NCBI GenBank assembly: GCA_964602395.1
Contig: CAZRRC010000007.1
Span: forward strand, 181-64,180
From: an uncultured Proteiniphilum sp.
GTDB taxonomy: Bacteria; Bacteroidota; Bacteroidia; Bacteroidales; Dysgonomonadaceae
DNA length: 64,000 bases
Reading direction: 5' to 3'
A program made the translations under genes and the position numbers. The notes under the pieces were generated by a model, which did no database searches, was not told where the DNA came from, and saw nothing but the letters and a program-made list of their open reading frames with translations. Positions 1-50,941 of this stretch are shown piece after piece; position 1 is the first letter of the stretch; every line of letters begins with the position of its first letter.

Positions 1-2013
1 GAGCAGGCAGGCATCCTTCCACCAGACGGCATCACGCGACTGTATCTGCAGGCGCGACTGTACATGGCGAAACCGGTCGTTGTCGACAAAAGGCTCCATC
101 CGGTTCCATATTTTCTGGAACTCCCGTACCTGCTGCACGCCACCATCGTAGCGGTAGCAGAGTTCATCCCACAAGGTACGTCCGTTTCTCATGGAGTGGT
201 CCCAGGGGACATGGTGAAACCAGAGCAACAGTTCCTCGGGACAGCTCTCCCGATCGTTGAATTGTTCACGTAGCGGTGAGCAGTATTGCGAAACGGCATC
301 GCTGCCGGCCGTGGTCCGGTCAAATCCAATTCCTTCGGGGCTTGCATTGTGATAGTAGGGCGGCAGCCAGTCGGGTCTGGCGCCGGGTATGTCACACCAA
401 GGCTCCGGGCCGTAGTGATGATCCCAGGCAAAGATATGATGCAAACCAAGTGGCATCATATAGTCGACCGCCGTTTCCCACGAACGGAGCATCATCTCCT
501 TCACGGGTTCTTCAAAGGCCGGTTCACCGGTAAAGGTCATCCCGATCCACTCATTAGCAATTTCTTCAGCTGTGAGGGTGTGGTCCCAAGCCAGGCGACC
601 GAAGGCATACCAGTTGGCTTGCGCGAAATGGTGCCCGCACCAGTTTGCATCCTGTCCGATGTTGGCAACACCTGCGATGGCGCTCAGACGGTGTGGATAG
701 ACCGATCCATCGGTGCTGCGGGCTACGGTGGTTTGCGCTCCCTTACAATGGGTGTCGCTCTCCAGAAATTCCTTCCATTGTGGGGCGAGGAAAACCAGGT
801 GATTGGAAAAGCCGAGGTACTCCTGGGTGATCTGCAGCTCCGGCATGAGTGGCGTTTGCTGCATGGATCCAAACAGGGGACTGAAAGGCTCACGCGGTTG
901 AAAGTCCACCGGCCCGTTCTTGACTTGGATGATCACGTTGTCGTGAAATGCTCCGTCCAGCGGTTTGAACTCCAGGTAGGCCTGTTTTGCCCGGTCCTCG
1001 GGCGTGGGATTGTAGACAAAGGCGCGCCACATTACAATGCCACCGTATGGCTTGAGTGCATCGGCCAGCATGTTGGCTCCTTCGGCATGAGTCCGACCGT
1101 AATCCTGTGGGCCGGGCTGACCTTCGGAGTTGGCTTTCACCAGGAATCCGCCAAAGTCGGGGATCAGCCGATAGATCTCTTTTGTTTTTTCCTGCCACCA
1201 TTTTTGTACTTGAGGGTTCAGCGGGTCGGAATCGTTCAGGCCACCCAATATTTTGGGGGAGGAGAAGTTCACCGACAGGTATACCCTGATGTGGTAGGGT
1301 CGCAGGATATCGGAGATCACTTTTACTTTTTCCAGATAGCTGGCAGTCAGTATGTCGGGGGAGGCATTCACGTTATTGAGCACCGTGCCGTTGATGCCGA
1401 TGGAGGCGTTGGCACGGGCATATTCCCTGTAGCGGGGTGATATCTCTTCCGGCAATTGATCCCACTGCCAGATGGAGTGACCGGCATAACCGCGTTCCAC
1501 CGTTCCGTTGAGATTGTCCCAGTGATTCAGGATGCGAATGTCGTAACGTGGCTGCTCGCTGATGTGGAGTGTCGAAAGGTCACTGCCTGTCTGTATCAGT
1601 CGCAGGAGGTGGTATACTCCGTAGAGCAATCCCCCCTCACCGGCAGACGCAACTAGCGTGACCCTTTTTTTGCCTTGCATCACTGTGCGGATAATGTATC
1701 CCTCCTTACCCAGCTCCCGCAGTTCTTTGGCGTTTATTATTTTTCTTATCTCTCCGTTTTTCGGGGTGCCAATCAGCAGGGTATGACCTGTCGACTGGCT
1801 CGTTTCGGATAGACTGCTGCCAGCCATCATGGTCCACGCCTCCTGAAACTGCTGCAGGGCAAATGATTCCTTGTCGCCGCTCACGGCCGTGAAGGAGGGG
1901 AGGACTGCTGCCTCACATGGCTGAAAGCGAAGCCACAAACGACTGTCGTCCTCAGCTCGTATCAGTCCACTGGAGACAATGCAGAGCCATATGGTGAAAA
2001 TAATTCGCCTCAT
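1..2013 (-). CDS. aguA: GH67 alpha-glucuronidase (3' end runs off the window; not in the ORF track)
   Basis: Manual translation from ATG at 2013, which overlaps the GH43_1 TGA: MRRIIFTIWLCIVSSGLIRAEDDSRLWLRF (signal peptide plus typical GH67 start). In-frame IQVKNGPVDFQPREP near 890-935 and RDAVWWKDACLL at the window edge. Frame was spot-checked, not translated end to end. Confidence 0.93.
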   Translation of the reverse strand, partial: MRRIIFTIWLCIVSSGLIRAEDDSRLWLRFQPCEAAVLPSFTAVSGDKESFALQQFQEAWTMMAGSSLSETSQSTGHTLLIGTPKNGEIRKIINAKELRELGKEGYIIRTVMQGKKRVTLVASAGEGGLLYGVYHLLRLIQTGSDLSTLHISEQPRYDIRILNHWDNLNGTVERGYAGHSIWQWDQLPEEISPRYREYARANASIGINGTVLNNVNASPDILTASYLEKVKVISDILRPYHIRVYLSVNFSSPKILGGLNDSDPLNPQVQKWWQEKTKEIYRLIPDFGGFLVKANSEGQPGPQDYGRTHAEGANMLADALKPYGGIVMWRAFVYNPTPEDRAKQAYLEFKPLDGAFHDNVIIQVKNGPVDFQPREPFSPLFGSMQQTPLMPELQITQEYLGFSNHLVFLAPQWKEFLESDTHCKGAQTTVARSTDGSVYPHRLSAIAGVANIGQDANWCGHHFAQANWYAFGRLAWDHTLTAEEIANEWIGMTFTGEPAFEEPVKEMMLRSWETAVDYMMPLGLHHIFAWDHHYGPEPWCDIPGARPDWLPPYYHNASPEGIGFDRTTAGSDAVSQYCSPLREQFNDRESCPEELLLWFHHVPWDHSMRNGRTLWDELCYRYDGGVQQVREFQKIWNRMEPFVDNDRFRHVQSRLQIQSRDAVWWKDACLL

Positions 2014-5575: not shown

Positions 5576-7531
5576 TTAATTGTTTGTTTTCGGTATGGTC
5601 GCCTGAAAGGGTGAGGCGGGCAGCCCTTCCCTGTTTTTCAAGTTTGCTTCAATGGGGTTATTTCCCCATGCATAACGTACTTTCACCGGATGGCTGATTC
5701 TGTCGTTCCAAAGGATGACCTTATTCTGATCGATGACAGCTTTGGCCCACACGTAACTGCCATCGGCTTCCTGTAAAGCAAAGCCCTTCAGTTCTTCTAC
5801 CGTCATCAGGTTGTTGGTTCCCTCTTTAAAAGAGAGTATGACCCGGTTGCCCTCACGGAAGACCTGCTCAAAGAGTGGTCCATTGCTCACCAGCTCCTTC
5901 TCGTCGTAGGCGATTTGGCGTGCTTGCAGTGAAAGCCGTCTACCTACCTCCTTTTTGTTGAGGGGATGGATGTCGTTCCATTCTCCGATATCGGTAGTGA
6001 CGACCAGCCCGGTGTAGGGTACTTTTTGTGTAAGTTGCAGTTGTATTTCCCTCATTTCTGCCCATTCACTTTCTGCCGGCTGTGGGGGATCTTGCATAAA
6101 GCTGGCTAGCTGCACAATCAGGAAAGGCAGCTCCTGCTGTTGCCAGAGGGTGCGCCAGTTACAAATCAACGATTCCATCAGTCCGGAATATTCATTGTAT
6201 CGACCGGTATTTGATTCACCCTGGTACCAGAGAACACCCTTGAGGCCCCAGTTCTTTAGGGGGTGAATCATGGCGTTGTAGAGACCGGTGGGTTTGTATT
6301 GAAAGAAGGTTTCCCCGGGCAACACTGGCATGGAGGTTCCTTGCTTGTATTTCCATATCCCCTCCAGGCATATCTCCTGCTTTTGCTCATCATGGAACAC
6401 TATTTTATAGGGCTTCTCCTCCACAAAGTGGGGAGTTCCGACGTAGCTGATCAGTCGCACCGTGATGTTGTTCTTTCCCGCTTTCAGCAGTCCGGCAGGA
6501 ATCTGATAGATGCGGGGAGGATACTGGTAGGCGGTGGTACCCACAAAATGACCGTTGACAAAAACCGAGTCGGCATCCACAATGCAGCCCATCCTAAGTG
6601 TGGCTGTTTTACCAGCAAGCTGTTCCGATACGGTGAAATCTTTCCTGAACCAGTGTGATCCGTTGATCGAATTCAGGCCATCGTTGCCCCAGTCTAGTGA
6701 AAAAAGATTCACATTTTTCCAGGTGGCATCGTCATGATCGGGTGCATACCAGGGGTGGTCTTTCTTTAATCCTTGATCATTCAGAAACAGCACGCTGTTC
6801 CATCGCTGTCGACGTGCACGATCAAGCTCACGAATGCTTTTCACGTGATTGTCGTCGCGGTAAATCGTTCTCTCATTGAGGTGAACCGGGAAGGCGGAAA
6901 GACCTTCTTCGCTGATCCAGGCCTCAGCAGGTGAGCCACCCACGCTGGCATTAAGCAAACCCACCGGTACGCCTGTTTTTTCATACAATTCCCGCGCGAA
7001 GAAATAGGCCACAGCCGAGAAGGAGAGTGCATTCTCGGGTGTGAGTGGTTGCCATGAGGCGGGTCGGATCTCATCGAGGGGATGATGAAAATTGTAGGTA
7101 AGGGGCACCTTCAGGTGGCGGATCATCGGGTTGCTGTACTGCTCCACCTCTGTCCGGTAGAGGTCCATGACCCGGCTTACGGGCAGTTCCATGTTCGACT
7201 GTCCGGAGCAGAGCCAGACGTCACCAATTAGGATGTTGCTGACCAGGATATCGTTTACCGACATCTGAAAGGGACCACCTGCCTGCTGTGGGGGCAGCAC
7301 GGTTTCCCAGTTTCCGCGGGTATCGGCTGTTGTGCTGAATGTTTGATTCAGAAACTGAATGGTGATGGTCTCACCCGGGTCGGCACTTCCCCAGAGGGTG
7401 ATCTCCCGGTCGCGTTGTAACACCATGCCGTCGGACACCAGTTGTGGCAATGTCACTTTTGCTTCGGAGGGCTGTACAGCAAGCAGTGCCAGAAGAAGGA
7501 AAGTCAGCGTTGTATGTTGTCTCTTCATCAT
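5576..7531 (-). CDS. CE20-type / sialate-O-acetylesterase-like SGNH esterase with inserted beta-sandwich (putative acetyl-xylan/xyloglucan esterase)
   Basis: Signal peptide; SDGMVLQRD; GDVWLCSGQSNME (Ser nucleophile); WYQGESN; DIHP (Asp-x-His). The SGNH domain is split by a jelly-roll insert (HWFRKDF...DADSVFVNG), the CE20 architecture. Confidence 0.85.
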   Translation of the reverse strand: MMKRQHTTLTFLLLALLAVQPSEAKVTLPQLVSDGMVLQRDREITLWGSADPGETITIQFLNQTFSTTADTRGNWETVLPPQQAGGPFQMSVNDILVSNILIGDVWLCSGQSNMELPVSRVMDLYRTEVEQYSNPMIRHLKVPLTYNFHHPLDEIRPASWQPLTPENALSFSAVAYFFARELYEKTGVPVGLLNASVGGSPAEAWISEEGLSAFPVHLNERTIYRDDNHVKSIRELDRARRQRWNSVLFLNDQGLKKDHPWYAPDHDDATWKNVNLFSLDWGNDGLNSINGSHWFRKDFTVSEQLAGKTATLRMGCIVDADSVFVNGHFVGTTAYQYPPRIYQIPAGLLKAGKNNITVRLISYVGTPHFVEEKPYKIVFHDEQKQEICLEGIWKYKQGTSMPVLPGETFFQYKPTGLYNAMIHPLKNWGLKGVLWYQGESNTGRYNEYSGLMESLICNWRTLWQQQELPFLIVQLASFMQDPPQPAESEWAEMREIQLQLTQKVPYTGLVVTTDIGEWNDIHPLNKKEVGRRLSLQARQIAYDEKELVSNGPLFEQVFREGNRVILSFKEGTNNLMTVEELKGFALQEADGSYVWAKAVIDQNKVILWNDRISHPVKVRYAWGNNPIEANLKNREGLPASPFQATIPKTNN

Positions 7532-7869
7532 TTTTTTGTTTCGCTTTGCAGGGTGCCCAGATAACTCTGCCTTAACCCGAAGAAATGGATCATGATCTTT
7601 TGCAGGTCGTTGCCGGCAATCACAGCACCTGCTCCTGTAAGAGTGGAAATCAGTGTAGAAGCGAAGCCGGTTGCTTTTTTCGTATCGCGCTTCTGGTTTT
7701 GTATGGTATGGAGTATCTCGCTTTCATCTACCGGATCAAAGAGAAGAGGGTGGGCGCGTTCCTGGTTTATCCAAGTGAAACCACCCTCCTTCCTTTGCAA
7801 CACGAAATATTCGAAAGCATATAGCAATGAGGATATCAAAAATCCGATAACAAATAATGAAATTCGCAT
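7528..7869 (-). pseudogene. GH115 alpha-glucuronidase remnant with a large in-frame internal deletion
   Basis: 113 aa: signal peptide, then GH115-like N-terminus (FVLQ..GFTWI..PLLFDPVDESEILHTIQNQKRDTKKATG..AVIAG) joined directly to LQKIMIHFFGLRQSYLG, which resembles the GH115 C-terminal consensus LQK(I/L)xIDxGGL(K/R)xSYLGP. Position upstream of esterase-MFS-GH10-GH43_1-GH67 fits a GH115 slot. Confidence 0.75.
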
Positions 7870-7959
7870 GGGTCGATCGGTCAGTTGCTTTTCAAATCAA
7901 TGGCAAACATTGATTGTGGACGTACACAATTATTCTTTAAATGAAATATTTATATCAAA

Positions 7960-7967
7960 CAAAGTTA
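7960..7967 (-). promoter_or_regulatory. Bacteroidetes primary-sigma -7 promoter element (TAACTTTG) for the distal GH115-remnant to GH67 operon
   Basis: Exact TAnnTTTG on the minus strand about 90 bp upstream of the ATG at 7869, in an AT-rich spacer; no canonical -33 TTTG. Confidence 0.6.
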
Positions 7968-8022
7968 GGTATAATTTTCTAAACGATGTATGGATAATCG
8001 GGATTAATTATTGAAATTTTGT

Positions 8023-8055
8023 ATAAGCAACATAAACTATGTTTATGTTGCTTAT
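8023..8055. terminator. Perfect 15-bp inverted repeat (hairpin terminator or operator)
   Basis: ATAAGCAACATAAAC-TAT-GTTTATGTTGCTTAT, located between the CE15 fusion stop and the next promoter; no clear U-tract on the minus strand. Confidence 0.55.
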
Positions 8056-8058
8056 TTT

Positions 8059-8158
8059 GCCAGTCAATTCATTGTGCATAATCTGTGTTGGGGGGGGGTG
8101 ATTGATTCTTACCAGTCGATCCATTGCATATAATCAGTGTTGGCAAAAGGATGAATCT
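8059..8158 (-). repeat. Degenerate tandem copy (about 52 bp offset) of the 3' end of the CE15 fusion gene
   Basis: Gene end CAT CCT TTT GCC AAC ACT GAT TAT ATG CAA TGG ATC GAC TGG TAA is followed by CAC C8 AAC ACA GAT TAT GCA CAA TGA ATT GAC TGG CAA (NTDYMQWIDW versus NTDYAQ*IDW). Confidence 0.75.
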
Positions 8159-10694
8159 CTACGTTCGTCTCTGTTTCGCAATCTCCCAGCAGGAATTTAT
8201 CGATAAAAGCCTCAACTTCCGGTCGTTGTTGTTCGGGGAGGATGCAATGTCCGTGGTTCCCAACGATGGAGAATCCGAACCTATCGGCAATATCGAATGT
8301 TTCCCAGACCCGTTTGGCGGCTTTGCACGATACATAGCCCGACTCGTCGGCAAGCCATTTATAGTCGGGGTTTCCCAGGCAGAGCAATGCACGTGGTGCA
8401 ATCATCGACAAGAGTTCGTGGTGATCGAAGGGCAACTTGTTGACATGGTCTGAAAATTGAAACATCTCCTCCATAAACCATACATGGCTGGTTCTGGCCA
8501 GTGTCTCCACTTCACCCAGTGTTTCGGAAACACGCCATGCTGCCGCTCCGCCACCACCCGATTCCTGTGCGATGGTGAGGGCGATGCGTTCGTCGAATGC
8601 TGCCGCATAGATTGCCATTTTACCGGCAAAGGAACAGCCGGTGATGGCCAGGTGTTGCAGATCGATGGGTAGTTTGTCGGCTACGAGTTCCAGCCCGTCG
8701 ATCAGGCGGCTCACCCCCCACGACCAGGCGCTGTAGGCTCCCATATGGATTAATTCGGGATAGAGTCGATTGATTGGTTCTTCACCTCTTTTTTGCTGCC
8801 AGGCCATCACCTGGGGGAAGTTAAAAGCAATTTGTGCGATATTGCGGGAAGAGAAGAGGTCGGGTGGAAGGCTTCCAGCACCAAAACCAATTCCGATTAC
8901 AGCAGGGAAAGGACCCTCGCCCTGTGGCAGAATTACATGGGAGGTGAGGGTCAGCGTCTCCCCATTCACCGTGATCTGCACGCGTAAGGTGTCATTTTGG
9001 TAGTCGGCAGTGATGGTGTCGGGTCGTTCCGGCTTTTTGCCGATTTCGTAATGTTGGATTTCCGCACCGATCTCCATTCTTCTGCGTGCCCAGTCCCCGA
9101 AGTGGGTGGATCGTCCACTGCCGTCGGACCAGGCAAAGGGATCGGGTAGTTTTTCTATTACGGGTAATTCCTCCAGTGAGGGGAGAAAGAACTCAAAAGG
9201 GGATACCGAACTTTCGGTAGAATAGACCAGAGGTATATCCGACGTTTGGTGGTGAGTGGCAGGAGGAACTTCGAGTATGATTCTTTTATAACTTGTCAGA
9301 TTGGGAATTCCGCAATCGGTTATTTCACAAACAATATGGATACTTTTCCCCGCCATGTCTGAGGGGATCTTTATTGTTGCCAGTGGGGTATTGGCATGCT
9401 CTATCTCTATCCCTTCCGAATAGGTGCCTGCCTCGGGCAACAAAAGCCATTGATAAACCAATTGATCACCGTCGGGATCATATGAGGCAGAGGCGTCCAA
9501 AACAATTTCCTCTCCTTGTTGCGGCGTAATGGATAATATTTCCTTGTCGTTCTTTCCATTGACAACCACTACCGGATTTCGGTTACCCTTGCCCTCTTTG
9601 GCCCAGTCCATGCGGGCAGCAAAATTATTGAAGGTGGCAGGATAAAAGTAAGCTTCGTACTTTTCGGATGTTTCTTTTGCCTTTCCTGTATGGTTTGTAA
9701 AGCAAAGGGTTACTTGATCCATTCCCAATCCCCACTCAAAGTATCCTCCCCAGCCAATCTGTCCCGGCTTTCCCGGATCATTCAGACCATTTGGCATGAG
9801 ATGTAGGAAGGACGGTGTATCGCCCTCAACCCCATATTTGTTCTTGGGGTAGATCATCCCGAGGTGACCATGATTTTGAATATGGGTTGCATATTCATCC
9901 CATTTCCCGGCACCAATTCCATTCTGTGAAAGCCATGCACTCTCATCCCAGATAAAGAGGAGTTCTTTTTCGAATTCACGGCGCATCCATTGGTGAGAGC
10001 TGAACGGATAGTTGGTGTGTCGTTCTCCCCAGGGAACATCCTGGTCGGTAATGGTATAGACGCGCAGTTTATTTAAGAAGTCATCTAGTTCCTTTTCCGT
10101 CCGTTCCTGTTTCACACGCCAAAGGGCCTGAGCCAGTGTGTTTCCCCCTCCCCAGACAGCAACCCAAATAGGGCGTTCGTCGGCTTCATCCACCAGCTGA
10201 ATGATAAAATCACTTCCTTGTGAATGGTTGTTTTTTCCAATCTCTCCGTATCCCAAATTCAAACTTCCCGGCATGACCCGCTTCCGTAAATAGCCTGCAC
10301 TGGGCCAGTAGCCTATTTGCTGCTGTCCGTTTTCCACTTCCGGTGCAAGAAAGCTCTTTTGTTCCGATCGTTTCTTCAGGTTGGGCAGGTCTTTTTCATA
10401 TGCATTGATCGTCCGGTGTAGAATCTCCATCCAGGAAAGGGGATAAGTCCGTCCGCTGCTGTTCCAGCCTCCGGAAGCAATCAACGCTTCAATCTCAAAC
10501 AGATCCGCATGCACAAGCAGGCGTATCATGGATTGCATGTCATCAGGCTCCACATCTCCTGGAGCAATATCAGTTAAAATAACGATCCGGGGTTTAAGCG
10601 GTACAGAGGTGGAATCTTTTGGGTTACTTGCTGCATAGGATACCTGTGTCATGGTAACCAGGCACAAAATAGACAAAAAATATTTTGTAATCAT
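8109..10694 (-). CDS. Secreted fusion: DUF1593 (Sde182 nucleoside-hydrolase-like) + Ig-like domain + CE15 glucuronoyl-esterase-family domain
   Basis: N-terminal RIVILTDI..EPDDMQSMIRLL, EGDTPSFL, GWGG (DUF1593); LDASASYDPDGDQL Ig-like module; C-terminal LPDPF, AWSWGVSRLIDGL, TGCSFAGK, QESGGGG, LPFDHHEL, HGHC (CE15). The signal peptide fits ATG 10694; the ORF-track start 10754 is a TTG. Confidence 0.85.
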   Translation of the reverse strand: MITKYFLSILCLVTMTQVSYAASNPKDSTSVPLKPRIVILTDIAPGDVEPDDMQSMIRLLVHADLFEIEALIASGGWNSSGRTYPLSWMEILHRTINAYEKDLPNLKKRSEQKSFLAPEVENGQQQIGYWPSAGYLRKRVMPGSLNLGYGEIGKNNHSQGSDFIIQLVDEADERPIWVAVWGGGNTLAQALWRVKQERTEKELDDFLNKLRVYTITDQDVPWGERHTNYPFSSHQWMRREFEKELLFIWDESAWLSQNGIGAGKWDEYATHIQNHGHLGMIYPKNKYGVEGDTPSFLHLMPNGLNDPGKPGQIGWGGYFEWGLGMDQVTLCFTNHTGKAKETSEKYEAYFYPATFNNFAARMDWAKEGKGNRNPVVVVNGKNDKEILSITPQQGEEIVLDASASYDPDGDQLVYQWLLLPEAGTYSEGIEIEHANTPLATIKIPSDMAGKSIHIVCEITDCGIPNLTSYKRIILEVPPATHHQTSDIPLVYSTESSVSPFEFFLPSLEELPVIEKLPDPFAWSDGSGRSTHFGDWARRRMEIGAEIQHYEIGKKPERPDTITADYQNDTLRVQITVNGETLTLTSHVILPQGEGPFPAVIGIGFGAGSLPPDLFSSRNIAQIAFNFPQVMAWQQKRGEEPINRLYPELIHMGAYSAWSWGVSRLIDGLELVADKLPIDLQHLAITGCSFAGKMAIYAAAFDERIALTIAQESGGGGAAAWRVSETLGEVETLARTSHVWFMEEMFQFSDHVNKLPFDHHELLSMIAPRALLCLGNPDYKWLADESGYVSCKAAKRVWETFDIADRFGFSIVGNHGHCILPEQQRPEVEAFIDKFLLGDCETETNVEIHPFANTDYMQWIDW

Positions 10695-10766
10695 ATCGGC
10701 ATGATGTTTGATATTCATATTGTAAATGTAGTGGCTATTTTTATAAAGCAGCAAACCGTGGCTGTA

Positions 10767-13517
10767 TTATTCAGATACCAGCATCAAGTTGCTCTCTTTC
10801 AGCCCCGGCGAAGTAGCCTTGATTGTGATGCTACCCGGTTTGCCTGCTTCACTTCTGACTATCACCAGGCATTGTCCGCTAAATGTCTCTCTTATGGAGG
10901 AAGGGAAAGGAGTCATGTCGGCCGGATTGCCGTTGTCGGTCGCCACAATCTCACCAGCTCCCTCAATTGTAAAATGAACGGGATAGACAGCATCTGGCAC
11001 AAGGAGTCCATTACGGTCGGTTACTTTTACGGTCACGAAAGCGAGATCATTTCCATCGTCAGCAATTGTTTTCCTGTCGGTTTCCAGTAGTAGTGACTCG
11101 GCTACATCCGTAGTTTGCACCACGTCCTCCGCCCATTTTTCACCATTTTTGTAGGCGATTGCCTTCAGTTCACCCGGTTCGTAACGGATGTCATCCCACC
11201 GGAGCCGGTATTCGAATTCACCCTTTTTCTTTCGTCCGAGCGACCTGCCATTCAGGAACAGTTCAGCCTCATCGCCGGAGGTAAAGAGATGTACCGGTGT
11301 GATCTGACCACTCCGGCAGGGCCAGTTCCAGTGGGGCAGGATATGCACCATGGGCAGCTCGGGCCGCCAGCGCGACTGGTAGAGATAGAAACGGTCTTTT
11401 TTGAATCCTGCCAGGTCGATGATGCCGCAGTAGGAGCTCCGTGCTGAATAGTAGGGGGTGGGCTCTCCCAGATGATCCCATCCCGTCCAGACGAATCCAC
11501 CGGCCACAAAGGGATGTTTGTCCTGCATCATGAATACTTTGTCGGGCGACGAGCCAAAGTCTACCGCATAGAGTTCGTAGGCGCTGACCTGTGCATTTTT
11601 TGCATCTCCTCCCTGGCCCTCCCGCACCGGAGAACTCATTTTCTCCGTAACAGGGAAAAGGTAGATCCCCCTGCTACTGAAGGAGGAAGCCACCTCGCTA
11701 CCAATAATTACCTTTTTGGGGAAGGTAGTGTGAAAATAATCATATTGGGGTGTCGTGCGGATCCGATCAGTTCCCTCAAATTCAGGCTCCTGTCGGATAC
11801 CCTCTCCCTGGTAGTTGAGACCGATCACATCGGGAACACGGGGGAAAGGCATATCCGGCTTGGCGTAGTTCAAGGAGAGGGTCGTGGGGCGTGTGGAGTC
11901 TTCCTCTTTGATAATCTCGTTTAGCCATTCTGCTATTGCTGCACCTTCTTCGTCGGTGTATTGTTCACCCACTTCGTTGCCATAGCTCCACATGATGATC
12001 GAGGGATGGTTTCTGTCGCGGCGTACGAAGGAGCGGGTGTCGGCTTCAGCCCATTCTGTAAAAATCAGGTGAAAGTCGTGCGGTGTCTTTTTCCTTTCCC
12101 AGGAATCGAAGATTTCGTTTACTACCAGGAATCCCATTCGGTCGGTCAGCTCCAGCAACTCCGGTGCAGGTGGGTTGTGGGCCATGCGGATGGCATTGCA
12201 TCCCATCTCCTGCAATAATTCAAGTTGACGTTCAGCGGCACGCCGGTTGAAGGCTGCACCCAGTGCACCCAGATCGTGATGCTGGTTCACCCCTTGGAGC
12301 CTGATGACTTCACCGTTCACCAGCACACCCCGTTGCGGATCTAATTGCAGATCACGGATGCCAAAGTTGGTTTCATAACGGTCGATTGTCCTGCCATTTT
12401 GCTGCAAGGTGGTGATGGCCTGGTAAAGGTGAGGTGTCTGGGAGGGCTTTGGCCCCCACAGTCTTGGGCTTCTTATCACTGTGGTGTGTTTGCTTTTACT
12501 GCTCTCCCCTGCATCAAGTGAAATTGTCGAAGTAGGAAAACGGGCAATGCTTTTTTTCCCTTTTATACCCAGGCTGTCTAGCTCATAGATCTCTGTTTCG
12601 ATCACGACTGTCACATCCGATTCCGATTCGTTGTCTACGTTTACTTCCAGGTCGACCGTTGCTGAGGATGCGGAGATCTCTCTCGCCGTCACAAAAGTTC
12701 CCCACTGACCCATGTGCACCGGGTGGGTTTTGATCAGCCAAACATTGCGGTAGATTCCAGCACCTGGGTACCAGCGGGAGGAGTGGTTGGGGTTGTCGAG
12801 GCGGATAGCCAGCTGGTTCTCTTTCCCATAGAGAATATAGGGTGTCAGATCGAGCCGCCAGGAATTATAACCATAGGGCCAACCGCCCACCAGGGTGCCG
12901 TTGAGCCAAACCATGGCATAGGACATGGCGCCCTCCACGTCAAGAAAAATGGAGCGTCCTTCGTCTGTAGCAGGAATGGAAATTTTCTTTCTGTACCAGG
13001 CCACACCCTGTACAGGGAGACGACCCATTCCACCACCCACTTCCGGATTGTCTCCTTCATAAAATGGACCTTTGATGGCCCAGTCGTGAGGCAAATCGAC
13101 CTTCTCCCAATTAGAGTCATCGAAATCATGTTGTACGAAAGGAAAATCTTTTCCAGGCGCTTCACCTTCGGGGCGGAGATAATGTTTTTCAGAATCTTTG
13201 ATAAAATGATTTGCCGTGGGCAGGATCCATGGCTTTAATACCGCTTCGGAAGAGCCCCTTTCAACCGCTTCTGTAGGTTTAGCATCTGCTATCAGATACT
13301 CCCGGGCCTCTTCAATGGCAGGCCGTACATCATAGTTGAGTGGGTCAATCTTTTCCGTTATATCGTATCTGTAAAAAGACCAACTATCGTTGAGAGAGAT
13401 CTTCTCCCGATCGATGGATCTTTTTTGTGGAATGAGGGAACAGGATCCAGTCAATACAGCAATAACAATTGTGAGCAGCGATCGCATTGTTATTCGGGCG
13501 AAAGAATGGGATGTCAT
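10767..13517 (-). CDS. GH2 glycoside hydrolase (beta-galactosidase-like), lipoprotein
   Basis: LPHDW, WYRK, FEG-like VEGAMSY, GVNQHHDLG, IRMAHNPP, WSYGNE (acid/base), IGSE (nucleophile), VWTGWDHLGEPTP; C-terminal DUF4982/Ig domains; lipobox LTGSC. Confidence 0.9.
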   Translation of the reverse strand: MTSHSFARITMRSLLTIVIAVLTGSCSLIPQKRSIDREKISLNDSWSFYRYDITEKIDPLNYDVRPAIEEAREYLIADAKPTEAVERGSSEAVLKPWILPTANHFIKDSEKHYLRPEGEAPGKDFPFVQHDFDDSNWEKVDLPHDWAIKGPFYEGDNPEVGGGMGRLPVQGVAWYRKKISIPATDEGRSIFLDVEGAMSYAMVWLNGTLVGGWPYGYNSWRLDLTPYILYGKENQLAIRLDNPNHSSRWYPGAGIYRNVWLIKTHPVHMGQWGTFVTAREISASSATVDLEVNVDNESESDVTVVIETEIYELDSLGIKGKKSIARFPTSTISLDAGESSKSKHTTVIRSPRLWGPKPSQTPHLYQAITTLQQNGRTIDRYETNFGIRDLQLDPQRGVLVNGEVIRLQGVNQHHDLGALGAAFNRRAAERQLELLQEMGCNAIRMAHNPPAPELLELTDRMGFLVVNEIFDSWERKKTPHDFHLIFTEWAEADTRSFVRRDRNHPSIIMWSYGNEVGEQYTDEEGAAIAEWLNEIIKEEDSTRPTTLSLNYAKPDMPFPRVPDVIGLNYQGEGIRQEPEFEGTDRIRTTPQYDYFHTTFPKKVIIGSEVASSFSSRGIYLFPVTEKMSSPVREGQGGDAKNAQVSAYELYAVDFGSSPDKVFMMQDKHPFVAGGFVWTGWDHLGEPTPYYSARSSYCGIIDLAGFKKDRFYLYQSRWRPELPMVHILPHWNWPCRSGQITPVHLFTSGDEAELFLNGRSLGRKKKGEFEYRLRWDDIRYEPGELKAIAYKNGEKWAEDVVQTTDVAESLLLETDRKTIADDGNDLAFVTVKVTDRNGLLVPDAVYPVHFTIEGAGEIVATDNGNPADMTPFPSSIRETFSGQCLVIVRSEAGKPGSITIKATSPGLKESNLMLVSE

Positions 13518-43149: not shown

Positions 43150-46011
43150 TTATTTTTTCAGGATAGTGAGCATCTGATCGGCATAACGTTCTCCCAGCAT
43201 TCTGTAACCTTCGGCTGAAAAGTGCAGGTTGTCCGGTCCGTCTTTGCAGCCTGCTGAAGAGATGACATGGCTGTTGGGGATTACCTGTGGCAAGGTCTGG
43301 ATGATCTCGTTCATGGACGCGCAGACACCTCCCTGATCGGCATGCACCACCTCCCCTGCAAGCAGTGGTACGGAGTTGGGAGCCAGTCCCACATCCCTGA
43401 GGAGCGTGTCATATACTTTTTTTACCTTCAGTGGCCATTCTTTGTCACCGGTATTGGATTCACCCTGATGTAGCAGAATCCCCTTGATGATGCCACCCTG
43501 CTGCCGTGCAAGACGGGCCATCTCCACCAGGCGCTGATAAGGATTGCCATCATACTCCGCGACCATGTTCTTCAGCCAGTCGGGAGAGGTGGTCACATAT
43601 TCCTGGTAGTGTTCCTTGTCGAAGAGCTCAATCTTACATCCACCCACTGCCACATTGATGACACCCACCGAGATGTGGGCGGGCAGTTCAGCGGTCATCT
43701 TTCGCCCGAAATAGTCGACCGGTCCGAGGCCTGTATGACAGCGCACAAGCGGCGGGATGGCTTTATACCACATACCTTTTACCCTTCCCAGATTTTCACA
43801 GTCAATGGTCTGCATCATCTGGAAACGATTGTCGATGTTGGTGGTATCTTCCGGTTTGAACCGTACGTGACCTTCCATATTCGATTGTCCCAGACAGAGA
43901 TAGACATGCATCTCTTCCTTTTCTGTTTCAAACTGAATCTGGTATGTTTTGACCACGCCGTTGTAGTTGAATTCCACCTTGGCACTACCTGTGAGAGCGT
44001 TGGCTTGTGTAATGTTTACTTTCACCTTCTTGTGATTGGAGGAGGCAGTCACTGTGGGCAGCGTGGTTGTCCCGTAAGGCAGTGTATAGGTGGCCTCATA
44101 CAGATTATAGCCAACAATGCCATTGGCATTGGTCGATCTGACAGGATATTCCGGTAGCTCTATCTCCTTCCCATTGACGGCAATGGAAACTGAGGGAATC
44201 ACCGGAGGAGCAATTTTCTTCTTTTTTGAACTGAAGCCAAGCCCTGTTAAATCAAAAAGTTCGGTTGATTCCGGCCCTTCTGCTACCAGGAAGATAGCAT
44301 GCTTCCTATCGAGGTGATCCACATAGCGGGCTACATCGATGGTGAACTGTGTCATTTTTTCTGCAGAATTTGCCGGAACAACAATTTCCCCAATTTTGGT
44401 TCCTTTCCAGGTTTCATTTTCCCAGGGACCATCCAACCACACACTGACCTTGAACGATTCCAATGTTTTGGGTGTCAGGAAGAGGTTGAAGGCAGTTTTG
44501 TTCCCTTTTTTTGTTCCCTTAAAAGATTTCAATCCTTTGGTATCCTTTTTGATTCCACCAAAACCAAAGTATTTGTATCCGATGACATGACCATTTTTGA
44601 CGTTGCCAATGGGCATGTGGTTGTTCCAGATATCCCAAGCGTCATGCTGGATGGTGACATCGGAAAGATAGCAGGCATACCCTGCAGAGTAATACTGATA
44701 AGGGTCAAGGCCGTAGATATGAAAACCTTCCGAAGTAACCTCCGCACCCTTGTATTCTCTTCCGTTGCTGTCCTTGGCGTGCCATATCTGGTCTTCGGTG
44801 TAGGGATCGTAAGCCCTGATGGTGACCATACCACCTTCCGAAACCGGCTTCTCATCCCATTCCACCTTCAGGGGAGCCACCATGGGCTGGCGCGCAAAGC
44901 CAAAGCCTCTAGGCGGTCTGTGGTAGAAGACGTACCACTGGTCGTTAATCAGCTCGATGCTGCCATGCGTATTGTGACCGGCATAGGAGGTCTCGATGGC
45001 CGATCCATCTTTGTTGAGTACAGGAGCCCGTGAATCGACCAGTACTCCACCGCTTCTCCAGGGACCCAGGGGGGAATCGCCCACGGCATAGCGCAGGGTA
45101 GAGTTGGAGCTGCCCACCCCATACTCGGGGCCCGAATAGCCGCTGAAAACGGTGACATACTTGTTCCCTACCTTGCGGATGGAGGATGCTTCAAAAAAGT
45201 TGAATGTTTTCAAATCCTGATCTGGATAGATCTGCGGGTAACGGGTACCTTCCGGATCGCGGATCATGCCATAACGAGCACTGGCGGGAAGAAAGTAGCT
45301 GATCACTTCTGTGCCGGGCCTGAGGGAATACATGGTCTGCTGATCCAGCTGAGCGGCCAGTGACCGCTGGAACCCCCAGTATCCGTAAGCCCTAAAGCCA
45401 ATCTCGTAATCGGGATCGGCTGGATCAGTAACATATTCAATATAAACAGCGGGATCAAAGCCCAGGATACTTCCAGAAATTGTGCTTTTACCATCTTCGG
45501 TCAGGTTGATGGGGGTGAAAGGACCATCGGGACGGCTGCCTTTGGCAACCATTGCCTCTCGGCGTGGACCGCGGCTGTGCGGATAGAGATAGTACTCTTT
45601 TGTGCCATCCTTTTTTTTCACTTCTACCAGATCAGGCGCATACATTACATCCCATTGACCATCAATCTGGTAGGTAAAGATTGGGCCTTCATCTCTCCAC
45701 TGGCTGAGATCCTCTACGGGTGCCGACCACATTCTGATATCCGGTCCGCAATAACTGGTGAACCGCAGGTCGTGTGAGCCGATGATGTAGGCCCGGTATT
45801 TACCTGGATTATCGGGATCCTCGAACACACGGGGCTCCCCATCGGGCAAATGCTCCCACAGAGGCAGATAGGGGTTCCCGGCTGCTTTATGGATAAATTT
45901 CGATTGTTGTGCCATTAACTCCGGAATGGAGAAGATACAGATGACCAAACAGATTCCCATGAGAATTTGTTTGTGTAACAAAGCGTTCAGATTTTTCATA
46001 AACAGAATCAT
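43150..46011 (-). CDS. Bifunctional GH43 + CBM-like + Ig-like + CE6 acetyl xylan esterase
   Basis: N-terminal NPYLPLWEHLPDGEPRVF, GFDPA, FFEASS, HNTHGS (GH43); C-terminal YLCLGQSNMEG, VAVGGC, LHQGESN, DNLHF (CE6 SGNH) at about 43153-43915; signal peptide. Confidence 0.88.
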   Translation of the reverse strand: MILFMKNLNALLHKQILMGICLVICIFSIPELMAQQSKFIHKAAGNPYLPLWEHLPDGEPRVFEDPDNPGKYRAYIIGSHDLRFTSYCGPDIRMWSAPVEDLSQWRDEGPIFTYQIDGQWDVMYAPDLVEVKKKDGTKEYYLYPHSRGPRREAMVAKGSRPDGPFTPINLTEDGKSTISGSILGFDPAVYIEYVTDPADPDYEIGFRAYGYWGFQRSLAAQLDQQTMYSLRPGTEVISYFLPASARYGMIRDPEGTRYPQIYPDQDLKTFNFFEASSIRKVGNKYVTVFSGYSGPEYGVGSSNSTLRYAVGDSPLGPWRSGGVLVDSRAPVLNKDGSAIETSYAGHNTHGSIELINDQWYVFYHRPPRGFGFARQPMVAPLKVEWDEKPVSEGGMVTIRAYDPYTEDQIWHAKDSNGREYKGAEVTSEGFHIYGLDPYQYYSAGYACYLSDVTIQHDAWDIWNNHMPIGNVKNGHVIGYKYFGFGGIKKDTKGLKSFKGTKKGNKTAFNLFLTPKTLESFKVSVWLDGPWENETWKGTKIGEIVVPANSAEKMTQFTIDVARYVDHLDRKHAIFLVAEGPESTELFDLTGLGFSSKKKKIAPPVIPSVSIAVNGKEIELPEYPVRSTNANGIVGYNLYEATYTLPYGTTTLPTVTASSNHKKVKVNITQANALTGSAKVEFNYNGVVKTYQIQFETEKEEMHVYLCLGQSNMEGHVRFKPEDTTNIDNRFQMMQTIDCENLGRVKGMWYKAIPPLVRCHTGLGPVDYFGRKMTAELPAHISVGVINVAVGGCKIELFDKEHYQEYVTTSPDWLKNMVAEYDGNPYQRLVEMARLARQQGGIIKGILLHQGESNTGDKEWPLKVKKVYDTLLRDVGLAPNSVPLLAGEVVHADQGGVCASMNEIIQTLPQVIPNSHVISSAGCKDGPDNLHFSAEGYRMLGERYADQMLTILKK

Positions 46012-47393: not shown

Positions 47394-48977
47394 TTATTTA
47401 TTCGTAATTTGCTCTTCGATCCGGTAGTAATCGAAATTGGCATAACCTCCCGTTTCTTTGGTAGCACAGTAGGTCAGTCCAAAGCGATATCCCATGAAAT
47501 GGGGTAGGGTATAGGCCATCTGTAGTGTGTTACCGATGGGCTCCCAGTTCAACCCATCGAGGCTGTAGAAAAAGGTGGCTTTGTCTGTTCGTCCAGTGAA
47601 GTCACATTCTATCTTCAGGTGAACGCCATTCTGGATGAGAGGAAGGGATGCGATCTCCAGAGGCTCTTCGTCTTCGCCATTGATCATCACGATGTTCTGT
47701 TGGTTGTTCTCTTTCTTTACGCCTACGAAGGCATATTTTTTCTGCAGGGCAATCATGCCTGCATAGTCACCATCCTTCATGCCGTTGACCTCCACGAATG
47801 TAGATGCCGCAGAAACAGGACCGAAGGTGCGCTGAGTCAATGTGTTTCTTACCTGCAGGAGGAATTTATCTATTCTTCCGCTTGTCAGCCGGAGATATCC
47901 CGGTGAATCGGATAGCGACCAGTAACGATTGTCAGGGTTGTGATTCCACTGCCAGCATAGGGGCAGCGGATCATCGTCGGGCATACGGTTGAACTCGTCA
48001 GATGCTACGATTCCCCATACTCCTATTTGCTCCGCTGTGGTGATATCCAGTGTGTCGGGAACAGTTCCATTTACACCCAGCACCGGCCAGTCGTTCTCCC
48101 ACTTCATCGGCATCAGATAGGGAATCCGTCCCACAGCTCCGTAATCGCGAAACATATAGGCATACCACTCACCCTGGGGTGTATCAATGATGCTGCCCTG
48201 TGCAATGCCGCGATCTCTTAGCACCACTTTACCCTCATAGGGTCCGGTAATCTCTTTCGCACGATGCACGATCACTGTCCGCATGTCGTTGGGGGGCCAG
48301 GTGATGTTAAAAAGGTAATAATACCCATTGTGTTTTACCATCTGTGATCCCTCTGCAGGAAGGCCGACTCTTTCTGATGCTACGAGGCTGGCTTTGGGTA
48401 TGATCACTTTGTTGATCCCATTTTCTTTTAAACCGGAGACCTCAGTTGTAAGCTCTGCAATACGAATATCACCTGCACCGTAGATCATATAAACCTTGCC
48501 ATCTTCATCGAAGAAAAGTGTATGGTCATGCAATACAGGTTCAAAGCTCTTCTCCTTCCACTCCCCTTTTTCGATATGGTCTGTGGTATATACATGTGTT
48601 TTACCCGAGGTGGCAGAAAAGGTAGAGACGTAGAATAATCCGTTGTGAAAGCGAATGCTACTGGCCCATGAGCCAGCGCCATAGGCATTATTGCCATTCT
48701 CAAGCCGCAATTTTTCGTTGTCGGCAAGTGTGTCATAGGCATAGCTGACCAGTTTCCAGTTTACCAGGTCTTTTGATTTCATGATAGGGAGTCCGGGACT
48801 CATGTGCATGGTGGTACTGCTCATGTAATAGGTGTCTCCCACGCGCACCATGGCTACGTCGGGTACGTCAGCCCAGATAATCGGATTGGTAGCTTTCGTT
48901 CCATCACCCTCTATTGTTCCGCTGAATAGTGCGAAAACGGTGAAGAACAATAGCAATAATTGAAAAAGTTGTTTCAT
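47394..48977 (-). CDS. GH43 (subfamily 10-like) arabinoxylan arabinofuranohydrolase (AXH-d3 type) with C-terminal beta-sandwich
   Basis: NPIIWADVPD, SSTTMHMSPG, GSWASS, HDHTLFF, AEGSQ, AQGSII, WQWNHNP; signal peptide. Confidence 0.85.
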   Translation of the reverse strand: MKQLFQLLLLFFTVFALFSGTIEGDGTKATNPIIWADVPDVAMVRVGDTYYMSSTTMHMSPGLPIMKSKDLVNWKLVSYAYDTLADNEKLRLENGNNAYGAGSWASSIRFHNGLFYVSTFSATSGKTHVYTTDHIEKGEWKEKSFEPVLHDHTLFFDEDGKVYMIYGAGDIRIAELTTEVSGLKENGINKVIIPKASLVASERVGLPAEGSQMVKHNGYYYLFNITWPPNDMRTVIVHRAKEITGPYEGKVVLRDRGIAQGSIIDTPQGEWYAYMFRDYGAVGRIPYLMPMKWENDWPVLGVNGTVPDTLDITTAEQIGVWGIVASDEFNRMPDDDPLPLCWQWNHNPDNRYWSLSDSPGYLRLTSGRIDKFLLQVRNTLTQRTFGPVSAASTFVEVNGMKDGDYAGMIALQKKYAFVGVKKENNQQNIVMINGEDEEPLEIASLPLIQNGVHLKIECDFTGRTDKATFFYSLDGLNWEPIGNTLQMAYTLPHFMGYRFGLTYCATKETGGYANFDYYRIEEQITNK

Positions 48978-50941
48978 ATGCTTATATTGTTAGATTGGAT
49001 TGTCATAAGATATACATTTTTGATGACAATCGGTTTATTTCCTGATGACCAGAAACCGATGATGTAGATGTGGGAGGGGTTTAGTTTGACCTGTTGATTT
49101 CCCACCTGTTTGTACATGTTGTGCAGGTCGACCGTCACACGGCGTCCGTTGCCAAAATCGTATAGCGCTGGTTGTGACCAGTAATTATTTTCATCGAAGA
49201 TGCGGAAGGAGACACCCGAATCGTTGTCGTTATCTAGCTCCGCTACCAGGTATTGGTAGCCGGAGAGATCCACTCCCTTGTTGTACCACCATCCACCGAA
49301 GCCCCATTGACCGGTAATCAATGTTTTTGTCTCGTTGTCGAACGATCCCTCTCCAAAAATGGAGGGGTTGAACATGGTCGATGTAAGAGGAAAGGTGCTG
49401 GCCCGTATGGTGACCACCGCTTCCCGTGTTACACCGTCAGTTGAGGTGTAGGAGGCAGTAACAGTTGCTGTTCCGTCTTTCAGTGCATGCACAATACCCT
49501 TGTCGGTAATCAGCAGGATCGACTCATTGGAAACATGGAAGCGGGTATCGGCCGTTACATAGCGGGTAGAACCGTCGGAAAATGTGGCCAACGTAATCAA
49601 ATAACGTTCTCCCCCAGTCAGAATTTCCAGTGAATGGTCTACGCCCATGATCTCCAGTTTTTCCAGTGCTGCAGATGTTCCTGTACTTCCTGACATATAT
49701 TCTTTAAACCAGTGATAGATGGGCCATGGACATGCCTCCGGGTCGTTGAGAAAAGTATATTGTCCCGGTTTGCCTGGAGTGTTGCTGAAAGCGGCCAGCC
49801 TATGGCATTCGGTGAAAAGGAGCCAACTTACATTTCCCGTCATGTCGACAATGTATTTGAAATTGGCACCGAATCCGGGACCACCTACTGTGCCGGTAAA
49901 GCTTTTACCCCAGGAGGCTTCGTGTTTTTTTGGAGCCCAGTCCATTTCGGTTACCATCACCGGTGCAAAATCGGCTACCGGCTTTATTTGTGCATTCCAG
50001 CCCTGCTGGAAACTCTCATACCCACCACCCATCGTACCGCCCAGCTCCGGACTTGCTTCTTCGGTATCACTTCCGTACCAGCCAGGATATGCGTGCACGG
50101 CATAACCAATGTTGGTTCCTTCCACCGGATTGTTGGCAAAGCCGCTGAAGGAGGACTGATAGGCCAGTCCCGGTACCCAGATGATGTTGTTGGCATGGGC
50201 TCTTATTTTATCTACGATGCGCTGACAGAATGATTTCATCTGGTCGAAGTGTCCCTGCCCGTTGCTGGCATAAGATCCTTCGGGACCCAGTATGTTGATC
50301 GGCTCGTTGGCCAATTCGAACATGATGCCGGGATTGTTTTTGATTTTTGGATGTGCCGAGACCGTGCTCCATACCTCTTCCAGGAACAGGTTGTAGTCAT
50401 CTCCCACAGCAATTTTTTCGGGGGCTACACCGGGTGGACGAAACACCACATACAACCCTTTATCATTGGCATATTCTGCCATTGGGATGAACACCTCATC
50501 CAGATATTTTTTAAAGCGTGAGATTGAAAAACGTTCATGTCCTTCATACCGGACAGATGGTTTGGAAGGGTCGTCACTCCAGTAGGGATCCATGTGCATC
50601 CGGACAAAGTTCATTTTCCATCCGGCAGAAAGAATGCCATCAATCATCATCTTGTTGTAACGGAGACATCCTGCCACATCGTGGTTTCCCCATGCATTCT
50701 GATTGAAAAAAGGACTGTAGGTTTGTGCGAATCCATGCAAGTTGATTACCTGTCCCTCGTTGTTCTTTAGGTATCTTCCAGCAATATAAAGCTGAGGCAA
50801 TCCGGTCTCCGGTTTTGGAACCACAGGGGGAATAACCGGCTTCTCTTCCTTTTTGTTCTCTTCTTCTATGGGCAACGGGGTGTCGGCACAGGAGGAGAGG
50901 AGCAGACCGGATAGCATGAAAAGCATAAACAGGTAATGCAT
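48974..50941 (-). CDS. GH5 subfamily 21 endo-xylanase, lipoprotein with Ig-like and CBM-like C-terminal domains
   Basis: NLHGFAQTYSP, VRMHMDPYW, FELANEP (acid/base), HAYPGW, VTEMDW (nucleophile); lipobox LSSC followed by acidic residues. Confidence 0.87.
   Translation of the reverse strand: MHYLFMLFMLSGLLLSSCADTPLPIEEENKKEEKPVIPPVVPKPETGLPQLYIAGRYLKNNEGQVINLHGFAQTYSPFFNQNAWGNHDVAGCLRYNKMMIDGILSAGWKMNFVRMHMDPYWSDDPSKPSVRYEGHERFSISRFKKYLDEVFIPMAEYANDKGLYVVFRPPGVAPEKIAVGDDYNLFLEEVWSTVSAHPKIKNNPGIMFELANEPINILGPEGSYASNGQGHFDQMKSFCQRIVDKIRAHANNIIWVPGLAYQSSFSGFANNPVEGTNIGYAVHAYPGWYGSDTEEASPELGGTMGGGYESFQQGWNAQIKPVADFAPVMVTEMDWAPKKHEASWGKSFTGTVGGPGFGANFKYIVDMTGNVSWLLFTECHRLAAFSNTPGKPGQYTFLNDPEACPWPIYHWFKEYMSGSTGTSAALEKLEIMGVDHSLEILTGGERYLITLATFSDGSTRYVTADTRFHVSNESILLITDKGIVHALKDGTATVTASYTSTDGVTREAVVTIRASTFPLTSTMFNPSIFGEGSFDNETKTLITGQWGFGGWWYNKGVDLSGYQYLVAELDNDNDSGVSFRIFDENNYWSQPALYDFGNGRRVTVDLHNMYKQVGNQQVKLNPSHIYIIGFWSSGNKPIVIKNVYLMTIQSNNISI

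Follow-up and report, generated by a model that had tools for sequence, protein, structure and literature searches.

Does the 113-codon open reading frame at positions 7528-7869 of the window (the whole 64-kb stretch of DNA analysed here) encode a small protein in its own right, or is it what is left of a larger gene? The window is a single minus-strand xylan utilisation locus containing two SusC/SusD pairs, GH10, GH5, GH8, several GH43, GH3, GH31, GH95, GH97, GH127, GH29 and GH2 genes and a hybrid two-component regulator. The ORF lies on the same strand (ATG at 7869-7867, stop TGA at 7530-7528) and starts 240 bp downstream of an 881-aa gene (8109-10754, minus strand) that fuses Sde182 nucleoside-hydrolase-like domains to a CE15 glucuronoyl esterase. 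Its stop codon overlaps the start codon (ATGA) of the next gene, which encodes a SASA-type carbohydrate esterase of 651 aa (5576-7531, minus strand). After the esterase come an MFS transporter, GH10, GH43 and finally, at the low-coordinate end, a partial GH67 alpha-glucuronidase gene (1-2001, minus strand) that closes this string of genes and runs off the window.

By itself the 113-aa product stays below all Pfam, NCBIfam and PDB thresholds, so annotation pipelines leave it unnamed. A preliminary description of this DNA had predicted a "hypothetical protein" call, and the protein cluster to which the product belongs indeed carries neither a name nor a Pfam domain in the source databases. The only candidate Pfam identity, DUF7793, scored 18.4 bits against a cut-off of 26 in an alignment spanning the junction described below and was taken as a chance match. 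From the evidence that follows, we consider it very probable that the ORF is a pseudogene-like remnant of a gene for a periplasmic GH115 xylan alpha-1,2-glucuronidase, kept because it carries the promoter and start of the operon.

A scan of genome contigs with the neighboring esterase gave its best matches in Bacteroidetes bacterium GWC2_46_850 (85%) and Proteiniphilum sp. UBA1403 (77%). The former, a contig of a metagenome-assembled genome (MAG) referred to here as L012, encodes an intact GH115 of 829 aa (7510-9996) directly upstream of the orthologous esterase, with PF15979 at residues 181-513 and PF17829 at 660-824. This protein aligns end to end (E=1e-263) with BoAgu115A (BACOVA_03449; PDB 4C90/4C91), the GH115 xylan alpha-glucuronidase of Bacteroides ovatus PUL-XylL. 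The same order recurs in L014 and also in L001, where an intact GH115 again precedes the SASA esterase, MFS and GH10 genes; the esterase, MFS and GH10 genes of L012 and L014 share 84-85% DNA identity with the window. The nearest intact relative stands at 81-85% DNA identity to the window.

The preliminary description had read the ORF as the N-terminus of a GH115 fused to the last 25 or so residues, and had expected split matches to both termini. Both were found: by BLASTP, residues 1-87 of the product match residues 1-87 of the L012 protein (69% identity, E=6e-39), and residues 89-112 match residues 806-829 (79% identity, E=3e-9). At the DNA level the window aligns with L012 in two blocks, 7870-7612 with 7509-7767 (81%) and 7616-5004 with 9914-12528 (84%). 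The split homology recurs against a second intact-length GH115 copy, that of L001. The 5' piece of the ORF (codons 1-86, 7612-7869) encodes the signal peptide followed by ~65 residues from the start of the GH115 N-terminal domain; its counterparts are L012 7510-7767 (blastn identity 81-83%) and, by mapping onto 4C90, BoAgu115A residues ~14-99. The 3' piece (codons 87-113, 7528-7611) holds the last ~24-27 codons for the C-terminal domain (a beta-sandwich) in their original frame, where a 2-nt loss in the terminal A-run has shifted the stop from TAA to the overlapping TGA. Since the similarity is collinear at both ends, in the original frame and in the orthologous position, the ORF descends from a GH115 gene, yet it is no working GH115.

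Between the two pieces, 2,151 bp (717 codons) are absent from the interior of the gene, with the frame kept. In L012 numbering the missing residues are 88-805, which enclose all of PF15979; the claim that more than 2 kb had gone, catalytic barrel included, was therefore borne out. Of the N-terminal domain two-thirds are gone, the TIM barrel and the helical bundle are missing completely, and of the C-terminal beta-sandwich hardly anything is left. In the 113-aa product PF15979 gives no match even at E<=10, and PF17829, of which the last ~24 of ~165 domain residues are left, gives no Pfam match. In BoAgu115A the N-terminal domain (33-196) is followed by the TIM barrel (197-482), a helical bundle and then a beta-sandwich at the C-terminus, and the residues implicated in catalysis (Asp206, Asp332, His422 and Asp424) all lie in the barrel (PMC3879575). 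By the 4C90 alignment and the split matches all four map inside the deleted part and are absent from the remnant. With every residue implicated in BoAgu115A catalysis removed, the product cannot be a glycosidase and hence not an alpha-glucuronidase. Like BoAgu115A, the remnant keeps the signal peptide, the N-terminal domain's start and the region of the last beta-strand (LQKIMI..G..SYL); unlike it, the remnant is without 717 of 829 residues (counted on the intact ortholog), including the TIM barrel and all catalytic candidates.

The junction falls on a palindromic hexamer, GCCGGC, at 7612-7617 (GTGATTGCCGGCAACGACCTGCAAAAG in the window), and the two DNA alignments overlap there by CCGGC (7612-7616). 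This is the position that had been proposed earlier (GCCGGCA at about 7611-7617). In the intact gene of L012, CGGC or CCGGC occurs at both edges of the missing segment (edges marked by a slash): ...ATTGTCGGC/TCT... and ...ATCCCGGCA/TCG.... In full, the 5' edge reads ...GTAATTGTCGGC/TCT... and encodes IVGS; the 3' edge reads ...GATCCCGGCA/TCGTYCTGCAAAAG... and encodes PGIV. The microhomology between IAGT and PGIV codons that had been suggested comes close to this: the PGIV side is right, and on the other side the intact gene has IVGS in place of IAGT. Because the alignments overlap by CCGGC, the simplest history is a single deletion at 4-5 nt of microhomology.

A two-step origin would run differently: a 144-bp in-frame loss between the similar strand-coding motifs GTAATTGTCGGC and GTGATTGCCGGC, then a large deletion from CCGGCAGCGACCTGC to CCGGCATCGTCCTGC, at which 13 of 15 positions match. 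It draws on a third BLAST match, in which the window junction GTGATTGCCGGCAACGACCTGC and the intact gene's second motif share 21 of 22 positions; that internal site, at L012 7903, reads GTGATTGCCGGCAGCGACCTGC (VIAGSDL). However, this route needs two events instead of one, while the one-step alternative needs only two substitutions in 9 nt, unremarkable at 15-19% divergence, and we regard the two-step route as unlikely. At that divergence from the nearest intact copy, the alignments leave the exact breakpoint ambiguous and one step not separable from two. A further micro-alignment of the junction, with a 9-nt slippage of tandem GTCGGC copies and a blunt join after AAC, also needs two events and was not preferred.

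Could the junction be an assembly collapse or chimera, with an intact GH115 in the true genome? All that favors it is the presence of short GYCGGC repeats at the edges, but these span 4-6 nt, far below the word size of assemblers. At least 20 DNA metagenome runs contained 96-100% of the sampled 31-mers of 7300-8100; they belong to 11 studies and stem from wastewater, bioreactor, digester, compost, soil, manure and pig gut. Contigs from four studies span 7612-7617 without a joint, and the same contigs, aligned to the intact L012 gene, show one joint with the interior skipped. Four further assemblies encode a same-species allele of the remnant (P0001, 113 aa, 98% identical) followed by the esterase. 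The identical junction recurs in many independent runs and studies, in DNA as well as RNA. No contig joining window-like flanks to the GH115 interior was seen in those runs, although contigs can drop rare variants, among which an intact allele may be. No intact copy of the remnant allele was recovered, though the allele occurs in many metagenomes: contigs from four of them, searched with L012 at 80% likeness, yielded only short conserved pieces of unrelated GH115 genes. A scan of metagenome contigs with an alignment of the N-terminus brought up neither another window-type allele nor an intact relative that is closer, only the L012 duplicate (L014), two loci of the P0003 type described below and distant GH115 genes. 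Since independent assemblies from many studies cross the junction, assembly collapse, to which we would give a negligible chance, is excluded. The misassembly that the preliminary description had wished to see checked is thereby dealt with: the scar is real in the DNA of natural populations, and widespread.

We then consider what is retained around the scar. The former GH115 gene has kept its promoter and 5' leader region at 7870-8050 (minus strand), with a Bacteroidetes-type -7 motif, TAACTTTG, at 7960-7967 and a palindrome, TGTGTACGTCCACA, at 7915-7928 that is unique in the window. Metatranscriptome contigs covering 6963-7928, 7338-7904 and 7613-7928 pass through the remnant or into the esterase, and they end upstream at 7904-7928. 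The interval 7930-8120 was uncovered in all four RNA runs, and the CE15 gene beyond 8120 was covered in two of the four. We take the remnant to be the first cistron of a transcript shared with the esterase and probably also with the transporter, GH10, GH43 and GH67 genes; this RNA evidence consists of assembled contigs, in which DNA carry-over is possible, and the 5' end of the transcript is placed by contig ends only.

In related loci the same promoter region precedes three differing states of the gene. In the first, that of L013 (Proteiniphilum sp. UBA1403), GH115 is wholly lost: the esterase begins MRIYLFI-LFLSLLA, its signal peptide having been joined in frame to six or seven codons from the GH115 start. 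In the second state, named P0003-type after its protein product and found in L002-L007, L015 and L016, an N-terminal piece that is frameshifted and reaches the equivalent of window 7660 meets, at GGCTyyGCTC, a 104-bp stretch of the esterase (window 7215-7112). That esterase piece in turn abuts unrelated DNA, which carries UxuA, a sugar kinase and a xylose isomerase, and LacI-type regulators and GH42 lie upstream. L013 and L016 keep the 7870-8050 region with other, larger GH115 deletions, and the region also stands upstream of SusC in L012, where 1809-1957 is 66% identical to window 8049-7905, a homologous promoter region. In the third state, that of the intact loci L012 and L014, a SusC/SusD pair separates this region from GH115, so the window lineage is also without that pair; L001 aligns with L012 just upstream of GH115 on a contig too short to show SusC/SusD. 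The promoter and start region are spared in every deletion state, which fits the idea that a deletion persists only if it leaves expression of the downstream genes intact. The deletions of the window, L013 and the P0003-type loci may have arisen independently, or the two larger ones may have grown out of a window-type ancestor, the junction that would tell these histories apart having been removed by the larger deletions.

Relaxed constraint is evident in the retained codons. Their dN/dS (Nei-Gojobori) is 0.30 against L012 and 0.48 against L001. When the two intact copies are compared with each other, the same codons give 0.07; the esterase gives 0.12 and the MFS gene 0.03. Such ratios pool the time before and after the deletion and can neither date the event nor prove neutrality. 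The non-synonymous excess over the esterase is significant (Fisher p=0.007). A set of 34 positions has the same residue in L012 and BoAgu115A; L001 keeps all 34 of them and the window 23 (p=4e-4), 11 deeply conserved residues having been replaced in the remnant. Population variants also occur: P0001 differs from the window by L77R, H95N and two silent changes, and in a related strain that has this junction too, RNA contigs show L107Q (7550 A>T) and Q108stop (7548 G>A).

Full-length 113-aa homologs conserved in other taxa would have spoken for a protein family, as the preliminary description had recognized. The protein-database search with the 113-aa product found three relatives only: P0001, P0002 (the first fragment of the full-length GH115 on contig L001) and P0003, a fusion differing from that of the remnant. 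When 1.84 billion representative proteins were searched exhaustively with HMMER, no conserved N-plus-C family of ~113 aa emerged; the only matches were P0001 and P0003, besides four short fragments of GH115 N-termini. Taken together, the constraint, variant and family results point, at the level of sequence comparison, to a decaying remnant. That the ORF is still open is unsurprising for 113 codons. A single-sequence AlphaFold model of the product is of low confidence (pLDDT 57, pTM 0.27) and says little.

Two readings that grant the remnant a function of its own have to be weighed against these data. It might be a new small secreted protein, a signal peptide plus ~90 residues with a role of their own, for the signal peptide is retained, the ORF is open and transcribed, and dN/dS is below 1. 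Against this stand the lack of a homologous small-protein family beyond the same species, the low-confidence fold, the replacement of conserved GH115 positions, the nonsense variant and two amino-acid variants within ~1% divergence, and the further deletion of the region in sister lineages; we consider this reading very improbable. Somewhat less remote, though still improbable, is a role as a translated leader ORF, for which the remnant would be retained: its frame and stop/ATG overlap would preserve translational coupling or avoid polarity for the esterase and transporter genes. The ATGA overlap, an ORF open in both the window and P0001, co-transcription with the esterase, and the direct fusion of the L013 esterase to the GH115 start codon, which shows the dependence of the downstream gene on the start region, would all suit such a leader. 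Yet the overlap is not conserved, as the ORF of the related metatranscriptome contigs stops at codon 108 and leaves 18 nt to the esterase ATG, and the intact gene ends 2 nt before the ATG with no overlap; moreover, an in-frame junction is a one-in-three outcome, and sequence constraint is relaxed. A small residual role, as a translated leader or a secreted peptide, may nevertheless exist, given the intact frame in the window and P0001, the overlap with the esterase start and the dN/dS below 1.

A broader proposal joins the leader to repeated loss. It holds that the GH115 gene was repeatedly and independently purged in digester and wastewater Dysgonomonadaceae-like lineages, that it is selected against there, and that the 113-codon remnant was maintained as a translated leader keeping the esterase-transporter-GH10-GH43-GH67 genes expressed. 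The observation behind the purging part is that three different junctions lie behind one conserved promoter. For the proposal as a whole we see little likelihood.

The reading we prefer, a GH115 remnant kept for its promoter and start, runs as follows. A single internal deletion of 2,151 bp joined codon 86 in frame to the last ~27 codons; the short repeat CGGC/CCGGC would have given rise to it, through illegitimate recombination independent of RecA or through replication slippage. The 5' end would survive as the downstream genes need its promoter, candidate operator, leader and start codon, and the only deletions tolerated would be those sparing it. The in-frame state would be a one-in-three accident, or at most mildly favored by keeping ribosomes running to the esterase start. 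That GH115 itself could be lost would presumably reflect the continued presence of GH67 and the other genes of the xylan locus.

In kind, this is an ordinary microhomology deletion and gene decay, and no novel type of gene; the novelty lies only in having scar, junction and expression state resolved. As in other microhomology-mediated (illegitimate, RecA-independent) deletions in pseudogenes, direct repeats of 4-5 nt stand at both edges and one copy is left, and at GGCTyyGCTC the P0003-type allele is joined in a like manner. We see no difference in kind from such pseudogene deletions; the intact frame and the retained promoter make the scar mimic a gene to annotation pipelines. The ORF should therefore be flagged as a GH115 remnant rather than a hypothetical protein, and when xylan capacity is deduced from CAZyme counts the locus should receive no credit for GH115 activity.

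GH115 enzymes take internal glucuronic acid side chains off xylan and xylan oligosaccharides, in the periplasm, and GH67 enzymes remove terminal substitutions only. No second GH115 lies within the 64-kb window. The organism, which occurs in metagenomes from wastewater, biogas, compost and manure, is thus predicted to remove only terminal glucuronic acid from xylo-oligosaccharides, through GH67, and to leave internal substitutions in place, unless another GH115 lies outside the 64 kb.

Loss of GH115 from a xylan PUL follows a known pattern, GH115 being a variable component of Bacteroides xylan PULs; in the group-two PUL-XylL of B. ovatus and B. xylanisolvens, a GH5_21 gene replaces GH30_8, GH98 and GH115 (PMC4491172). 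The window shares with group-two PUL-XylL the character of a large xylan PUL, the presence of a GH5 gene (48974-50941; compared at the level of the GH5 family) and the lack of a working GH115. In contrast to group-two PUL-XylL, the loss here shows as a scar in which both ends of the gene survive and the junction is mapped, and not as a clean absence or replacement. It offers a clean example of how PULs shed genes, by a microhomology deletion whose survivors are the promoter and start region serving the downstream genes. The setting of the remnant, a xylan utilisation locus with GH10, GH43, GH31, GH95, GH97 and GH67, is like that of BoAgu115A (PMC4491172). XylS-like and XylL-like blocks lie side by side in Proteiniphilum acetatigenes (PMC4491172), an arrangement that the window resembles, and its nearest named relative is a Proteiniphilum MAG.

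The promoter region of the operon that includes the GH115 remnant and the SASA-type esterase gene contains a palindrome, TGTGTACGTCCACA (TGTGnACGTnCACA), at window positions 7915-7928, which is its single occurrence within the 64-kb window. The operon promoter region of all related loci keeps this palindrome. The locus with an intact GH115 gene from Bacteroidetes bacterium GWC2_46_850 (L012) has two copies (~1940 and ~2130), both upstream of SusC, and further copies lie at ~9950 in the Proteiniphilum sp. UBA1403 locus (L013) and at ~5950 in L016, a locus with another GH115 deletion. The edge of the palindrome in the window is the exact end point of RNA contigs. We regard the palindrome as a candidate operator for some regulator.

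What follows the promoter differs between the loci. Where GH115 is intact, the homologous promoter and the GH115 gene are separated by a SusC/SusD pair (L012 2258-7331 versus window 7870-8108), whereas in the window, L013 and L016 the promoter stands immediately before the GH115 start, with no SusC/SusD between them. The pair was thus either lost in the clade of the window, L013 and L016 or acquired in L012.

In L013, the excision of GH115 is complete: GH115 codons 1 to 6-7 (MRIYLFI; 9989-10030) are joined in frame to the esterase's own signal peptide, and the GH115 start codon now serves the esterase. In L016 (6001-6369), as well as in L002-L007 and L015, the 122-aa ORF P0003 is a triple chimera, in which a frameshifted GH115 N-terminus is followed by 104 bp of the esterase gene (GQSNM motif region) and then by unrelated sequence. 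P0003 is flanked upstream by LacI regulators and GH42 and downstream by UxuA, a kinase and xylose isomerase; in these loci, the same promoter region has been transferred to another context. The otherwise intact GH115 copy of the JGI contig L001 carries three single-base insertions relative to L012 (L001 positions 673, 1977 and 2367), two of them within homopolymer runs, which break the gene call into four ORFs. The esterase part next to it has zero such insertions. The insertions represent either sequencing errors or a separate decay route.

The window encodes a second SASA-domain protein of 953 aa (43150-46011, minus strand), with the esterase domain solely C-terminal (residues 701-948) and no Pfam match across the long N-terminal part. 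Within the esterase gene of the operon, pieces of unrelated contigs align in several runs to a 32-nt stretch (7188-7219) in the region of the CSGQSNME catalytic motif, a highly conserved motif common to other SASA/SGNH esterases. The same stretch is kept in the P0003 chimera.

In the 881-aa protein encoded at 8109-10754 (minus strand), the CE15 glucuronoyl esterase is fused with a nucleoside-hydrolase-like Sde182 domain at the N-terminus and with an Sde0182_C domain. The CE15 orthologs in L012 and L013 are standalone proteins of about 400 aa, so the Sde182-CE15 fusion belongs to the window lineage alone. Immediately beyond the CE15 stop, at ~8088-8100, the intergenic region contains a homopolymer of variable length, a run of about nine G (C on the coding strand). 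Metagenome contigs X3, X6 and X7 differ here by 2 nt from the window and contig X1.
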